Counted from the first letter of the stretch, positions 33,945 to 54,067 are shown. The stretch is 64,000 nt of DNA from an uncultured Nitrososphaeraceae archaeon (GCA_963837175.1 CAWIMJ010000034.1:1-64000), one strand, 5' to 3'. Notes: a model not told the origin generated them from the letters alone. Translations and numbers: made by a program.

Positions 33945-34285
33945 ATTGTATCATTAGTTTCCCTCGGATCAAAGGTTTGCGGATCTATCTTGTATGTACT
34001 CAAATCTCGGATACCTTCCTTCTGAATTTAAGATATTTATTTACCCCGGCTCTTATGCTAGTTCGGGGTCAAGCTGATCTTCAGTGGTCTCTGCTTGCAT
34101 TAAACCTTTGTACCCTTTCGTACCCTTTCCGGTATTTGGATTTCCTCCTGATTCCGCTGCAATGATGCCTCTTACTAAATAGGGATTTATTCCCACCTAA
34201 TCTTCTGATTCTCTCTATTTATGCTTAGATTGAAATCATACAGCGCATAATTAGGTCTAGACTGAGGTGACCTTTCAACATTCAT
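33945..34285 (-). pseudogene. Leader plus SLT lytic transglycosylase fragment (not in ORF track)
   Basis: Manual translation: MNVERSPQSRPNYALYDFNLSINR / GINPYLVRGIIAAESGGNPNTGKGTKGYKGLMQAETTEDQLDPE / TSIRAGVNKYL. Contains the catalytic ES and the GLMQ motif of SLT domains. Confidence 0.8.
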
Positions 34286-34341
34286 TGTCACGTTGATAAC
34301 TCTATAAGCTTGCGCTCAATAATCGTATAGACTTGCTGTAA

Positions 34342-34672
34342 CCTTATCAGTTGGTTCAGAGGTCATAAAAAAGCTATTTCACTATTTTGCCAACCATTAT
34401 GAGGGAGCAATTCAGATATATTCCAAGCTTCTATAATATTGATCTTGACATCCCCTTACAAGCTGACCAAAAAAATTGCGAATATTATGTTTGTAGAATT
34501 AAGAAAGCTACACCATAATGTCATGAGAAGAAGCATGGATATGAACGAAGCTGATATCTTGGCTGGTCGTGCTAAATCAGTTTCTGCTAAACATTATGCT
34601 ATGTATGAGCTGGATAAACTTACAAATTCATATATGCAGGCTTGGAGCAAGTTTGGGTTGAAGTTTTCATGA
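34342..34672 (+). pseudogene. C-terminal fragment of SSV-type tyrosine integrase
   Basis: WFRGHKK..YFTILPTIMREQF..ELRKLH..ILAGRAKSVSAKHYA, a close paralog of the 39044 C-terminus. Confidence 0.88.
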
Positions 34673-34774
34673 GAAATCTTGATGTATATGCTATATCCTT
34701 TCCATTAGCCAACAATAACAAAAAGAATTGGACAAGATAAAACAAACAAGATTCAATTTATTACGATGTATCTA

Positions 34775-50474: not shown

Positions 50475-51779
50475 TCAGCGTGATTGGGAAAGTGTGGGAC
50501 GAACAATTTTGTCCCTTATCTTAAGCCATTCCTGCACCCCACTGAGTGTCTTCCGGTCGGATCGGCTGACCTTTAAGTCCTTGATGCCGAGCATAGAACA
50601 CCATATTGGTGAGTTCTTTAGGATCAGTCTGGCCATTCCTTATCGCTTGAGTGACTGCCAGATTTTCTTGACCTGCACGGATTAACTGGCGAAAACGCTC
50701 GATGAATGTCCCGTACAACCCGCTGGACGATGATGTAGGGTTGACTGTAGAGACGGAAGCAGTTGTAGCAATATTGCCGCCCTGCCGGCGGCAATGCCGT
50801 TGTAAATGTAAATCCAGTCGATGTGCTGATCTTTGCGTAACCAACCCGGGTCCCAACATTGTTTGTCTGTAAGACGGCTTAGTGGCGTAATGTCTTCGTG
50901 TCCAAGGAGGCACGAGCTACGCCACCATGGTTGTTTACTTTTCTTACTTATGTCACAAAGGTTATCTGTATAAAGTGGCCATTTATGTCGTTGTGCGATG
51001 TCCCATGCAAGTCGGGCAACTGTCTCATGTTGTGCCTTAGTGAAACGAAGTCCAGGACGCATGGGTTTTGCAGCAGGATCTGTTATCAGTTCACCGTTGG
51101 GACCCCCATTATATACGCAGGGAACACATTCCACGTGAACATATGTCATGTTTGGGTCGTTATGAAGTGGAATGAGATCCAAGGAGTGCGCGCGACCGGG
51201 CCATCGTGCTCGCCAGAGTGGAATAACCACAGGCATTAGATCACTCTCGAAGCGTCCTTCTTTGATTGAGGCCCACTGATCTTTTGATTTATCAATGATA
51301 TAATTACCTGTTGATTTATCGATGATATAATTACCTTTTTTATCCTCCAGGTAAACATGCCCGACACCCCAAGCCACTTGACGCTCGTTCATTACCTGGT
51401 GTAACTGCTACCCTTCTGTACCAGCCCATCCATTCACGTAATGTGTCCCTCCAGTGCCAGGTTTCTCTCTAGTGCCAACATAGTAACGAACCGCATATTC
51501 ATCGGGAGGTTTGCCAGGCAATTCGCGCTTTAATTGGAACGCCCCCCCTGTAGTATGAACTACAAGGCCGTAGACCTTATCGCGCCAAGGAGTAATTCTG
51601 GGACCATGGCCATTGTGGAGGCCGAGGTCCCGACGTGCTAGGGGAGACAAACCATATTCGAGCTCCCCTTGAGGCGTATCAAATTCAAAACCGCTATACT
51701 CGTCCAGTTCGTTAGTTTTAAGGGAAAAAATTTCTACATCTTCTTCGAGATTAGACATTTGATAACTAACATTTACCAT
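50475..51779 (-). pseudogene. Acidic-leader N-acetylmuramoyl-L-alanine amidase (amidase_2) with C-terminal helical module; in-frame TAG plus frameshifts
   Basis: GLVVHTT, THYV, VAWGVG, VHVEC, FTKAQ, LGHEDI...WDPG. TAG at 51408-51410 is in frame with the 51392 ORF. The tail reads ELTNMVFYARH...VQEWLKIRDKIVRP. Confidence 0.8.
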
Positions 51780-52942
51780 CTACTTAAGGAATTTGTATCT
51801 ACAAGGGATAAAATGAGGTAAACCATGATTGATATCTATCGTAGATTTATTGGTATCGTGAGTATGATGGAACTGAAAAGGTATCGTACTGGCGCACAGC
51901 ATATACGTAAAAGGTGTTGAGACGGGGAAAGCTAAGTGATCTCAGAAATGAGGGATTTGGATAGGAATATGGATTGGTTCAATGGAGACATTCGAATCAA
52001 GTTAGACGATGTTTAAGTGATTCTCATATATATGAATAATAAAGAACAGAAAGAAAAGGAAAAGTAGTGAAAACAAAACAATAACTGAATATAGAACACC
52101 AGACAAAAAAGATACTGATTTAATCTTTGCAATTTATCAAGACACACAGGTGCAAAATCATTTCCTAGCAAGACCGACGAATATCATAGTGAAAAGAGAT
52201 TTTATTTGCTACAACATAACATATTTACTAGAATATGCATAAGCTGTTAATGAATGAAATTTTCTAACTTAAGGTGTTCAACAATGAAGGTTCCGTTATT
52301 CAGGGAGATGTCATAAGCGCTGTATCCAAGCCTTTCTTTAGGATAGTACTATTGCACTGAATACAAAGGGACAATAATTGTTGACGTACAAAATAGATTT
52401 GTTAGTTTTGATGAATTTATAGATGGGTTTTCCAACTTTTGAAATGATGTATGCTACAGCTAATGATGGTCGTGGTAGAACTCTCTTCCATAGTTCAATT
52501 CCACCAGTAAATACAGTTTTAAAGGTATGGGAAGAGGCAAAAAGAAAAATTTACGCCATTGCATGGATTTAGTTATTTTGCAAGGCAATATTTCTGCAAT
52601 AAATCAGAATATATCGCCTAACGATGTGCTAATTCTGTTAGCCTATAAAAAGTGAAACGTATAAAACTAAACGGCCGCAGCAATCTTCAAACCAATATTC
52701 AATTAACTATAGTGTGTAGTAGATTGTAACAATCAAAGCAAATATAATATTCCATAAAGCAAAAGGTTGTAAGGTAAGAATACAAAGCAGTATATCTACA
52801 TACATATACATACTACAGATCTGAACATTTAAACTCGTATTACTATTGTACTATAGAAGTTATACTCTTGCGTTCATAACAGACAAGGATCTTTGAAAAG
52901 TCAGTTAAATAACTTGAAATATCTGCTTGACGGCATTAGCCT

Positions 52943-54067
52943 ATGAAAAATCTCATTACTAAAAGTAAAGGAGATCCATATAACGAAAGATTATTTTTTC
53001 GATACTACCCTTTTAATAAAATCACATATACGAAAATTGAAAGGTTACCTCAGTCTAGACCTAATTATGCACAGTATGCCTTTAGTCTTAGGATAGATAC
53101 AGAATCAGAAAATACATTTCCATTTAAGAAAATAAATTACATTCGTAGTGAAGCGGATTCCTCAACGATGTATAGTTATCCTTCTAAACAGTCTACTGCC
53201 GGCTCACCCTTGCCTGCTTCGCCATTATTATCATTAGGTACGCTGAGAGTTATGACAGAGCAATACGGCCTGCCCGAGAGACTCCGTTTCGCTTATAAGT
53301 TTACAGCAGATGATGCCCTATGGACAGCGCGATTTATCTTAGGTGAGGCTGGTGGTGACGATAATGCAGACAATCATGCAGTTATTTGGGCTATGTTTAA
53401 CCGCTATGCCTTTTTTACCCACTATGGTAGTCCATGGGGTGGCACATACAAAACATTTTACAGTTATTTAAGAAGTTACTCGACACCATTACAGTCGCCA
53501 CTAAATAGTTGGGCGGCAGCACAGCGTGTAATGAATCGTCCAGATTTTGTAAGGTTTGGTGGTTACTATACGGGAAAGAAGGTCCCAAAAGCATGGCGGG
53601 ACATCATCCCGATTGGTCAGGCCGGGATGTTCCTTAGACTCCAGAGCACTCCTTGGCATAAATTACCAGAAAAGGCCAGGAGGGTAGCAGAACAAATAAT
53701 GAAAGGTAATATTTCTAACCCAGGAGTAGGGGTTGCAACTGAATTTGCTCATACGTTTGTGATACTCAGGCAAAATATGCAAAACCTAGCAAAAGAACAA
53801 AATAAAAGAAATCCTGCTTCAAATATTGACATAAGTAAAATAAAACCTAGTCTTCAGGAGTGGGAACAGTTCAATGAAAAATATAAGAAAGGATGGAAAT
53901 GGATTGGTCATGTTTCAAATCTCCACCAGATGTCAAAAAACACCTTTTTCAAAGATATGCGTCCCATTCCTAGTGATATACGTAAAAGACTTTATTCAGA
54001 TTTACCATCAGAAGTAGTTCAGAGTACTCCCGCCGTAATCTCTTTCGAAAATACTACTTTTAGGTAA
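52943..54067 (+). CDS. Leader-bearing SleB/Hydrolase_2-like cell wall hydrolase
   Basis: WTARFILGEAGG...AVIWAMFNR and VAEQIMKGNISNPGVGVATEF resemble the SleB motifs LAR.I.GEA.GE...AVA.VI.NR and G..PDPT.GAT. Confidence 0.65.
   Translation: MKNLITKSKGDPYNERLFFRYYPFNKITYTKIERLPQSRPNYAQYAFSLRIDTESENTFPFKKINYIRSEADSSTMYSYPSKQSTAGSPLPASPLLSLGTLRVMTEQYGLPERLRFAYKFTADDALWTARFILGEAGGDDNADNHAVIWAMFNRYAFFTHYGSPWGGTYKTFYSYLRSYSTPLQSPLNSWAAAQRVMNRPDFVRFGGYYTGKKVPKAWRDIIPIGQAGMFLRLQSTPWHKLPEKARRVAEQIMKGNISNPGVGVATEFAHTFVILRQNMQNLAKEQNKRNPASNIDISKIKPSLQEWEQFNEKYKKGWKWIGHVSNLHQMSKNTFFKDMRPIPSDIRKRLYSDLPSEVVQSTPAVISFENTTFR

Follow-up and report, generated by a model that had tools for sequence, protein, structure and literature searches.

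The stretch of DNA analysed here (the window) consists of 64,000 nucleotides (nt) from an uncultured Nitrososphaeraceae archaeon, corresponding to C34:1-64000 of a 3.8-Mb assembly with 34% GC, whose genome (G000) is 91% complete. The assembly encodes an archaeal AmoA (393 bits); because archaeal amoA is present, the organism is an ammonia-oxidising archaeon. The window's minus strand carries a gene cluster between 55980 and 63572 whose members are named after a bacterial cluster, where A is a protein of ~843 amino acids (aa), B is an HExxH protein, D is a protein of ~437 aa, and E denotes giant cell-wall hydrolases; enzyme genes are located at lower coordinates (Table 1). A short peptide motif containing a Pro-Phe pair (the PF tag) is found near the N-termini of protein A, of a 73-aa open reading frame (ORF) and of two of the enzymes. 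A first-pass annotation of the window had read the N-termini of five genes as sharing overlapping parts of one leader, RP[NS]Y...ESE..PFxxIxY, and had interpreted it as a modular addressing tag with swappable effectors, as in polymorphic toxin systems.

Table 1. Genes, gene remnants and tag positions discussed in the text, in window coordinates
Feature	Position	Strand	Description
Gene A	60501-63572	-	ORFs 62541-63572, 62324-62728, 61462-62466 and 60501-61553, in three frames
Tag of gene A	63474-63497	-	SEVYPFKKITY
Gene B	59182-60489	-	435-aa HExxH protein; N-terminal three-helix bundle and predicted zincin-like domain
Leader-only ORF	58775-58996	-	73 aa
Tag of leader-only ORF	58898-58921	-	YPFKKIIY (in SEVYPFKKIIY)
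Lineage-specific gene between B and D	56858-58778	-	Split into 154 aa (58314-58778) and 480 aa (56858-58300)
Gene D	55980-56861	-	293 aa; homolog of ~437-aa bacterial protein
Last operon gene	55237-55968	-	243-aa ORF; three 81-nt repeats; without tag; no significant family match
374-aa enzyme gene	52943-54067	+	Intact; leader, linker, ~270-aa Hydrolase_2/SleB-like domain
Tags of 374-aa enzyme	53006-53029; 53117-53140	+	YPFNKITY; FPFKKINY
Amidase_2 gene	50437-51779	-	In-frame stop, then a frame change leading into a middle-module copy (about 50557-50742)
PhoD-like gene	41578-44386	-	Two overlapping ORFs, 562 aa (42698-44386) and 406 aa; one frame change
Tag of PhoD-like gene	44144-44167	-	SPFRIIQYTEYE
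Leader-SLT remnant	34053-34291	-	34-aa leader piece (34187-34291) and 47-aa SLT piece (34053-34196), in different frames

The PF tag and its enzymes in the archaeal genome

The strict form of the tag is concentrated in one region of the genome. Across six-frame ORFs of at least 60 aa, PF[KN]KI[TNI]Y is observed four times against 0.02 expected, and all four copies fall within C34:33000-64000, which is 0.8% of the genome. The looser pattern PF..I.Y occurs 21 times genome-wide against 13.3 expected, with five occurrences in the same interval. In contrast, RP[NS]Y by itself is not enriched (8 observed, 17 expected genome-wide) and was discarded as a tag component; it carries meaning only within a 24-aa segment, ERxPQSRPNY..., that is common to the 374-aa gene, to the metagenomic proteins P0001, P0002 and P0085, and to the SLT remnant. 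As annotated, SEVYPFKKI.Y heads the ORFs that begin at 63572 and 58996; the latter duplicates the 5′ end of the former with 97% DNA identity (58807-59035 against 63383-63611), so it does not count as an independent occurrence of the tag. A short ORF at C12:181945 carries RPEY...PFRRIFY, possibly by chance.

The 374-aa protein has the most complete leader, with the order YPFNKITY-TKIERLPQSRPNYAQYAFSLRIDTESEN-TFPFKKINY and the ERLPQSRPNY... segment between its two tags. It has 87 homologs, in which the shared C-terminal domain is fused, in bacteria, to VanY, M74, Amidase_2, M23, PG_binding_1/3 or DUF2272 and the E135 residue of GEAGG is invariant. The nearest Atlas clusters of this C-domain, according to protein-language-model features, belong to Hydrolase_2 (SleB/CwlJ; score 0.93, 22 of 30 hits); the protein itself has no Pfam match to Hydrolase_2 (PF07486) at E ≤ 0.1 and no PDB profile match. 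The 562-aa ORF of the PhoD-like gene carries RPSY, ESESPF and SPFRIIQY, as the annotation had listed, and ANPFE in addition. It has 87 longer homologs, of which many of the more distant ones combine PF09423 (PhoD) with M23, GH25, S8, VanY, Amidase_2 or PG_binding_1; in seven of the nine relatives scanned, the PF09423 score is 18-21 bits, below the cut-off of 27, and the window's PhoD-like ORFs have no PF09423 match at E ≤ 0.1. The labels 'SleB-like' and 'PhoD-like' have no direct Pfam support at E ≤ 0.1 in the window ORFs and are supported indirectly.

The annotation had started from two similar stretches of DNA on opposite strands, and their similarity is confirmed: blastn aligns them over 79 nt with 82.3% identity (E = 6.8e-17 when the window is searched, 3.9e-15 for the full genome), and a repeat search of the window recovers inverted arms of 72 nt with 82% identity (34212-34283 and 53032-53103). 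The plus-strand arm lies inside the intact 374-aa ORF, and the minus-strand arm lies inside the 34-aa leader piece of the SLT remnant. This leader piece is 68% identical to residues 33-57 of P0001 and carries only the segment between the motifs (ERSPQSRPNYALY...), with neither PF motif; the SLT piece scores 20.6 bits against PF01464 (cut-off 21.3) and aligns with model positions 11-43 alone. What the annotation took for a leader running into an SLT domain is a broken remnant in two pieces and not a gene. When the leader and middle module of P0001 are compared with the genome by tblastn, the matches are confined to this region and fall on the 374-aa gene, on the SLT remnant and, at its 3′ end, on the amidase gene. 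The amidase gene has an acidic, aromatic N-terminus of the bacterial kind (EEDVEIF...DEYSGFEFD) without a PF tag, and its homologs are found inside the E genes of two bacterial loci (L046 and L017); its GC content of 45%, within a genome of 34% GC, suggests a more recent transfer from a higher-GC bacterium.

Metagenomic relatives show the leader in front of other enzymes. P0001 and P0002, which are 77% and 75% identical to the 374-aa protein, have the two-motif leader, a 75-aa middle module (carrying ..LTDLIFYARHP..) that the window protein lacks, a linker and the same C-domain. P0085 has the identical architecture (leader, middle module, linker) until about residue 176 and then continues into a divergent SLT part, which scores 21.8 bits in Pfam (cut-off 21.3) and does not align with the window's SLT fragment. 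A leader-only word search of 5.8 billion proteins, covering lengths of 244-779 aa, found only these three. Moreover, the four closest homologs of the PhoD-like protein begin with ..SPFKLSYIQSE, APFKIRYLQYE, TPFKIQYLQDE and LPFKLHFINYE; in three of the four, the middle module comes next, followed by M23 and a PhoD-like part, and the fourth (P0240) has M74 and M23 instead. Judged by their sequences, the PFK motifs of these relatives bridge the window's PFKKINYIQSE and SPFRIIQYTEYE, and the archaeal-type leader is joined to Hydrolase_2-like, SLT, M23, M74 and PhoD-like modules. A match of the middle module to Effector-associated domain 11 (E = 0.061 in P0001) was not repeated in any of nine further proteins, the majority of them with the module, and was dropped.

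These comparisons support one part of the annotation's reading, the leader as a module joined to different catalytic domains; an 'addressing' role is putative. The notion of five genes with one leader holds for the motif itself, which is real, and not for the full count, as the SLT copy is without a PF motif and the 73-aa ORF is a duplicate. The tag also extends beyond effectors to the cluster's conserved large protein A, which differs from the picture that the annotation had drawn.

The bacterial cluster and its motif

A scan of species-representative genomes yielded 61 loci with homologs of the window genes, all of them bacterial. Their hosts are Bacteroidota (Dyadobacter, Chryseolinea, Chitinophagaceae, Saprospiraceae, Flavobacteriaceae), Ignavibacteria, Nitrospira, Rhodocyclaceae/Zoogloeaceae, Verrucomicrobia, Planctomycetes, Dadabacteria and Actinobacteria. 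When the ORFs of the 61 loci are clustered with those of the window, a conserved gene order emerges: a LuxR-type regulator of ~150 aa upstream (40 loci; no counterpart seen in the window); A in position 1 (~843 aa, 57 loci; in the window, the 343-, 334- and 350-aa ORFs and the 73-aa duplicate); B in position 2 (~418 aa, 56 loci; the 435-aa ORF); a small coiled-coil protein in position 3 (~104 aa, 11 loci; none in the window); D in position 4 (~437 aa, 53 loci; the 293-aa ORF); and in position 5 at least one very large wall hydrolase, E (median 810 aa, 37 loci; the 374-aa protein's C-domain and the amidase). Judged by homology and gene order, the window's 'operon' is the archaeal copy of a conserved bacterial cluster.

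The bacterial proteins A and E carry a version of the same motif. In full-length bacterial A, [ST]PF occurs within the first 110 aa in 48 of 48 proteins, with at least two copies in 44; typical tags are [YF]ETPF[AT]D and, about 30 residues further on, E[SD]PFSRTYE, and P18, F19, P48 and F49 are invariant among 45 aligned A proteins. Among 37 E ORFs of at least 300 aa, [ST]PF begins the protein, in its first 15 residues, in 22 cases (M-x-[ST]PF in 18), and many have a second copy 25-40 residues downstream. As controls, [ST]PF is found in the first 110 aa of 0 of 52 B proteins and 6 of 48 D proteins, and, in 354 other ORFs that are 200 aa or longer, in the first 15 aa of 4 and in the first 110 aa of 17. 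Further tagged ORFs occupy the same downstream position, one of which is a small glyoxalase-fold protein. Bacterial and archaeal-type tags have in common a P-F pair that is separated by three or four residues from a Y or F, after which acidic residues usually come; the alignments suggest a conserved bacterial motif [ST]-P-F-x-x-x-[YF]-[ED] and an archaeal version PF-x3-4-Y (YPFKKI[TN]Y, SPFRIIQY).

This conservation bears on whether the shared N-termini have a function at all, or are leftovers of local duplication and recombination in a repeat-rich island. The region does contain many duplications (97% and ~95% copies, an integrase fragment and a 116-nt inverted repeat), and of the five tag occurrences one is a duplicate and one is a pseudogene; however, all 45 A proteins compared, which come from several bacterial phyla, keep the P-F pair unchanged, enzymes that differ entirely in their domains have the motif at their very N-terminus, and the small leader ORF with its stop/start overlap is kept in a related metagenome contig (L065). 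A functionless duplication would seem already disfavoured on these comparisons, and we regard it as very improbable.

The conserved motif could also act in the victim and not in the producer, as an import epitope that binds a conserved envelope or periplasmic protein of the target cell; TonB and TolB boxes lie in the disordered N-termini of colicins, and the PF motif is likewise short, common to A and E, and placed in a hydrophilic, mostly acidic N-terminus. A conserved victim receptor would not be expected to select a motif that depends on the producer's lineage and has changed together in A and the enzymes ([ST]PF.. versus YPFKKIxY or PFK[IL]xY). The motif is also strictly linked to the A-B-D module, and we hold an import epitope to be quite improbable.

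The tagged enzymes are diverse. Among 34 tagged E proteins, the domains identified are PG_binding_1 (15 proteins), Amidase_2 (9), Peptidase_M15_4 (7), PLDc (6), Hcp (5), SH3_3 (4), M23 (3), YkuD_2, S8, DUF2272, VanY, OmpA, SLT and GW (2 each), and phage lysozyme (1). The Hcp domain of the 2008-aa E protein of L006 (E = 1.4e-29) lies at residues 1854-1994, and it is likewise C-terminal in four other E proteins; one Hcp-ended tagged hydrolase is encoded in a genome (G041) in which the sheath family of the type VI secretion system (T6SS) was not found. The tagged N-termini are hydrophilic and mostly acidic, with a median net charge of -16 in A and -11.5 in E (the leader of the 374-aa protein, at +6, is an exception), and in A they are followed near positions 175-190 by a net charge of +11 to +19 per 60 residues. 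A signal-peptide-like hydrophobic stretch was not seen in the first 70 aa of the four window proteins, where the maximum 12-residue hydropathy is at most 0.3; over the same span, values of 1.8 or more are reached by one of the 48 A proteins and by none of the 22 E proteins. Further, Pfam detects no Sec, T5SS, T6SS, T7SS (type V, VI and VII secretion) or Photorhabdus virulence cassette (PVC) trafficking domain in the leaders or in A, B and D. No small gene is conserved after E in the 61 loci, where no search was directed at immunity families; for an archaeal producer, having no peptidoglycan, an immunity gene may be unnecessary.

The paired motif copies and the Hcp domains invite another explanation, in which the motif would be a cargo-loading peptide of the kind that docks onto encapsulin shells. 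Here A would form a carrier or scaffold, the PF motif would dock both A subunits and enzymes onto A, and B and D would be maturation factors. Two motif copies on A and one or two on the enzymes would suit cross-linking and docking, a domain of the ring protein Hcp ends 5 of the 34 E proteins, and the cluster contains no conserved transporter. Against this, A matches no shell, capsid or tube family in Pfam, PHROGs or PDB profile searches, and its disordered and repeat regions, together with its cationic amphipathic stretch, suggest membrane activity over a shell, leaving cargo loading an unlikely explanation by analogy.

Of the core proteins, the window's A consists of the tag, an acidic region, a cationic amphipathic stretch (net charge +18 over 60 aa from residue 202), two tandem-repeat arrays (15 nt repeated ~10 times and 42 nt repeated 9 times) and a C-terminal domain. 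Its 343-, 334- and 350-aa pieces cluster with the single bacterial protein; the 134-aa piece has no match among the bacterial A cluster and is joined by read evidence. B has 409 homologs in 1.84 billion representatives, and H203, E204, H207, E246, D250 and H285 are invariant in 43 sequences. Its AlphaFold 2 (AF2) model (pLDDT 93.5) has a three-helix bundle followed by a small sheet and the HExxH helix, as in zincins, and B is a putative zincin-like metallopeptidase; a Foldseek comparison of this model with the PDB gives no match at E ≤ 0.001, and M32, MATCAP and Ste24 appear only at a probability of at most 0.2. The VIA rows for B cover its N-terminal helical bundle only, so that the catalytic part is barely tested there. 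B has a maximum hydropathy of 1.64 over 19 aa and no predicted membrane segment. An assignment of B to DUF4157 was rejected, as there is no Pfam match and B does not show HExxHxxQ, the signature quoted for that family in a passage of PMC3482391.

The tblastn matches of D are located immediately downstream of B in 55 loci, and its ORF cluster is present in 53. The AF2 model of a bacterial D is all-helical (pLDDT 83) and has no Foldseek match in the PDB at E ≤ 0.001 (best VIA Z 6.3), and an Atlas search with bacterial D gave no usable match. The lineage-specific gene between B and D has no family match in Pfam, PHROGs, NCBIfam or PADLOC and no match in the 61 bacterial loci; it is a single ORF in L065 and in another archaeal genome, G208 (538 aa). 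The stop codon of the 73-aa ORF overlaps the ATG of this gene (ATGA; 58775-58778 in the window, 2865-2868 in L065), and translational coupling or a frameshift site that places the tag on the downstream protein are both possible. Ten ORFs of the region have no meaningful match in Pfam, PHROGs or NCBIfam; A, B and D of a Dyadobacter locus have no Pfam match; PDB sequence-profile searches with B, D, A and the 374-aa protein's C-domain returned nothing meaningful; and the sole PADLOC match among ten proteins scanned is a marginal one to DrmMII on one B protein (E = 0.002, 15 bits). Overall, A, B and D belong to no named family, and the models of B and D match no solved fold.

Archaeal copies, selection and gene integrity

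Neither the 374-aa protein nor B was detected in 40 related genomes. A profile search with B across 401 genomes of the class recovered G000 itself and, clearly, two members of its family, G208 and G306; G264 gives a fourth, marginal match (E = 6.8e-4, spanning 76 residues in an 864-aa frame). The order in G208 is an intact A (987 aa), B, the 538-aa gene, D and a deaminase-like ORF, and G306 has a shorter, more divergent version. The last ORF in G208 (299 aa; 24588-25487 of L072+L073) lies downstream of D, where bacteria keep their wall hydrolases, and contains HAEG...SPCQKC, which we take to be a deaminase-like signature. A ParB-like gene is found shortly upstream of gene A, at C34:67417-68286 (beyond the window) and at 16230-17084 of the G208 region (L072+L073).

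The closest relative is the metagenome contig L065 (39% GC), whose B is 87% identical and whose gene order is that of the window, including the small leader-only ORF. Between the two, the ratios of nonsynonymous to synonymous substitution rates (dN/dS) are 0.22 for the C-terminal part of A and 0.23 for B; the lineage-specific gene has 0.34-0.36 and the 73-aa ORF 0.70. The module is under purifying selection.

This selection weighs on an explanation by regulated self-lysis, following holin-endolysin or abortive-infection logic, in which A would permeabilise the producer's membrane, the cytoplasmic hydrolases would lyse the cell, and the tag would only keep A and the enzymes inactive until B took it off or unmasked it. 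Enzymes without signal peptides would be expected of such a system, as would the LuxR-type regulator upstream in 40 loci; moreover, the layout of A, in which an acidic N-region (net charge about -16) precedes a cationic amphipathic one (+11 to +19 per 60 aa), presumably resembles the pro-forms of lytic peptides. However, purifying selection is seen in archaea that have no peptidoglycan to lyse, PADLOC gives no match, and the E proteins carry PG_binding_1, SH3_3, GW and OmpA modules, which are typical of enzymes that bind walls from outside. We consider a regulated self-lysis or release module improbable; lysis of a subpopulation as a release route is compatible with antagonism and overlaps the explanation preferred below, in which the tag is recognised within the producer.

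The archaeal genes are present in other samples. The segment 58700-63650 was detected in 20 soil or rhizosphere runs from 12 studies, with at least half of its sampled words in seven of them. Contigs from four of these runs, three DNA and one RNA-library, were compared with the window over 55200-63650, where stretches without contig cover in single runs are no evidence of absence. Four indels restore longer frames: -1 at 62704 (X1, X3, X15) joins the 343-aa and 134-aa pieces of A; +2 at 62325 (X1) joins the 134-aa and 334-aa pieces; -1 at 61574 (X3, X15) joins the 334-aa and 350-aa pieces; and -1 at 58321 (X7) joins the 154-aa and 480-aa pieces of the gene between B and D. Because the contigs of other samples lack these four breaks, the breaks are assembly errors or strain-specific, and a reading of them as decay of A and of the gene between B and D was rejected; long housekeeping ORFs are intact in the same assembly. 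An RNA-library contig spans 62690-63504, where the 5′ part of A with its tag lies; it shows no substitutions, and its single gap is the missing base at 62704. This is compatible with transcription and no proof of it.

The remainder of the window is rich in repeats and mobile elements. A direct repeat of ~870 bp (33086-33959 and 47451-48320; 93-98% identity, 14.4 kb apart) has its first copy stop where the SLT remnant is cut, near 33959, and an integrase C-terminal fragment at 34367-34656 is a copy of 39633-39921 (84-87%). A perfect 116-nt inverted repeat (34773-34888 and 40676-40791) encloses 5.8 kb with a two-ORF insertion sequence (IS) transposase (35527-36341), a 256-aa Cys-rich repeat protein (36611-37381), a poly-gamma-glutamate (PGA) hydrolase and an archaeal-phage-type integrase (39044-39964); the segment looks like a composite mobile element. 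The Gamma_PGA_hydro gene (37879-38915, plus strand) is split into 118-aa and 225-aa ORFs, with a Pfam E-value of 1.7e-18 on 38238-38915, and a related ORF is located at 29669-30178 on the minus strand; this hydrolase is a further archaeal enzyme against a bacterial envelope polymer, without a PF tag. Just beyond the window, the region C34:64105-65604 encodes an M20-type peptidase, apparently in three ORFs. By eye, a 120-aa ORF at 46074-46436 resembles a DNA polymerase B fragment, and the translations of ORFs at 352-1311 and C34:84374-85495 resemble tyrosinases and that of a large ORF at 12398-14995 a glucose-methanol-choline (GMC) oxidoreductase, the last two kinds being unrelated to the tag.

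A proposed role for the tag and its relation to known systems

The distribution of the tag points to a reader within the system: it is present on A and the enzymes, absent from B and most D proteins, and has changed in parallel in A and the enzymes, with a shift from [ST]PF to YPFKKIxY in the archaeal lineage. In the mechanism proposed here, the tag would mark A and a swappable set of envelope-attacking enzymes (Hydrolase_2-like, SLT, amidase, M23, M74, M15, PLD, PhoD-like) as clients of one conserved gene module. B would read the tag inside the producer, either cutting it or docking on it, and is the best candidate because it is the only enzyme-like core protein; D would be the second candidate. 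A, as a membrane-active partner, and the enzymes would thus be coupled by the tag for Sec-independent release or activation, and the targets would be neighbouring bacteria. Because the E motif often starts at residue 3, where cleavage removes almost nothing, docking would be likelier than removal of a pro-peptide. Further, an archaeon without peptidoglycan cannot use these enzymes on a wall of its own, and the combination of wall enzymes, lipases and proteases without an export signal, their occurrence in producers with three kinds of envelope, and selection in such an archaeon argue for a self-contained release or activation module. We lean, with somewhat better than even confidence, towards the tag being an in-producer recognition signal of the A-B-D module, most likely read by B, that couples A and the enzymes for release or activation against bacteria; the reader (B or D), the outcome (export or activation) and the bacterial targets are each what we infer from the pattern of tagged proteins.

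Several observations weigh against recognition of the tag by the module. The start of the E motif at residue 3 is unlike a classical pro-peptide, [ST]PF is missing from the first 110 aa in 8 of 37 bacterial E-cluster ORFs, and no conserved transporter, ATPase or membrane channel by which proteins of 1000-2000 aa would leave the cell is found in the ORF clusters of the 61 loci. In G208, DKFRSSYEEE replaces the PF motif of A, and G306 has only an acidic repeat, so the motif is not obligatory in all archaeal copies. Moreover, the SLT, amidase and PhoD-like client genes are broken in the assembly, and the system may be partly decayed in this organism; contigs from RNA libraries, like the one that covers the tag of A, can contain DNA. 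A complex prediction of bacterial B with A residues 1-85, run without controls, returned a score of 0.00, which gives no verdict and counts neither way.

A wider claim, which we hold as possible and rather doubtful, is that A, B and D form an unrecognised self-contained system by which very large enzymes of the cytoplasm are deployed independently of Sec, Tat and contractile machines, in diderms, monoderms and S-layer archaea, with clients picked by an N-terminal PF motif of 7-8 residues, and that ammonia-oxidising archaea of soils acquired it from bacteria to serve as a weapon, or a feeding tool, against bacterial walls. Among bacteria of soil and wastewater the module is widely distributed (Bacteroidota, Ignavibacteria, Nitrospira, Rhodocyclaceae, Verrucomicrobia, Actinobacteria), where it is linked to some of the genomes' largest multi-enzyme wall hydrolases. 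If the tag directs release or activation, it would constitute a new route of interbacterial and archaeal-bacterial antagonism and a portable tag for lytic enzymes; for nitrifier ecology, this would imply active attacks of some soil ammonia oxidisers on their bacterial neighbours.

Full-text literature searches found no published description of the cluster or the tag, and its features can be compared with five kinds of known system. Colicins similarly have short epitopes in a hydrophilic N-terminus before the killing domain and are released without a signal peptide; unlike colicins, the proteins here have no recognisable receptor-binding or translocation domains, their motif varies with the producer lineage, and their payloads are huge and multi-enzyme. 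Sorting signals paired with a dedicated enzyme are known from PEP-CTERM/exosortase, PGF-CTERM/archaeosortase and prepilin/prepilin peptidase. Like PEP-CTERM/exosortase-type systems, the cluster combines a short motif on many proteins with a protease-like enzyme encoded alongside; unlike them, with their Sec signal and membrane anchor, the motif is N-terminal and soluble, without a hydrophobic segment.

The payloads resemble the effectors of T6SS and extracellular contractile injection systems (eCIS), which include amidases, lytic transglycosylases, M23 peptidases and PLD lipases, and Hcp is present in 5 of 34 E proteins; cargo of the PVC type also uses a disordered N-terminal loading signal. 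In contrast to T6SS and eCIS, the Hcp domain of E is C-terminal, and A, B and D match no family of either system. Searches of G000 for sheath, gp25 and Hcp (PF04984, PF04965, PF05638) gave 0 matches, and the T6SS sheath protein VipB (PF05943) was found in one of five bacterial carrier genomes tested; contractile injection or T6SS was rejected as a general delivery route on these grounds.

Archaeal peptidoglycan hydrolases that kill bacteria offer a closer ecological parallel. According to passages of Strock et al. 2025 (PMC12352652), 68% of archaeal peptidoglycan hydrolases (143 of 210) have no known signal peptide, and the characterised cases are haloarchaeal Tat-secreted enzymes; passages of PMC12704722 cite that paper. 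As in the examples of those passages, an archaeon without peptidoglycan here encodes transferred bacterial-type wall hydrolases; the passages do not mention ammonia oxidisers, the tag or the A-B-D module. As most of the hydrolases in these passages (PMC12352652) have no export signal, the present locus offers a concrete candidate signal together with candidate machinery.

The comparison drawn by the first-pass annotation was with polymorphic toxins, which, in the parts of PMC3482391 that describe them, join a constant N-terminal part to recombined C-terminal enzymatic modules and are patchy, transfer-prone and rare in archaea. The present system is similar in its constant N-terminal part and variable C-terminal enzymes, in having a truncated spare copy nearby, the SLT remnant, and in a patchy, transfer-prone distribution that is rare in archaea. 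It differs in lacking any known trafficking domain, repeat stalk or secretion route, in that no immunity gene was identified, in that the constant part is a short linear motif, sometimes with the 75-aa module, and not a large domain, and in that the motif is also carried by the conserved non-enzymatic protein A. The annotation's modular tag with swappable enzymes is supported. Overall, the cluster has a fair chance of being a new deployment system that follows a logic like that of polymorphic toxins, but whose trafficking part is a motif of 7-8 residues.

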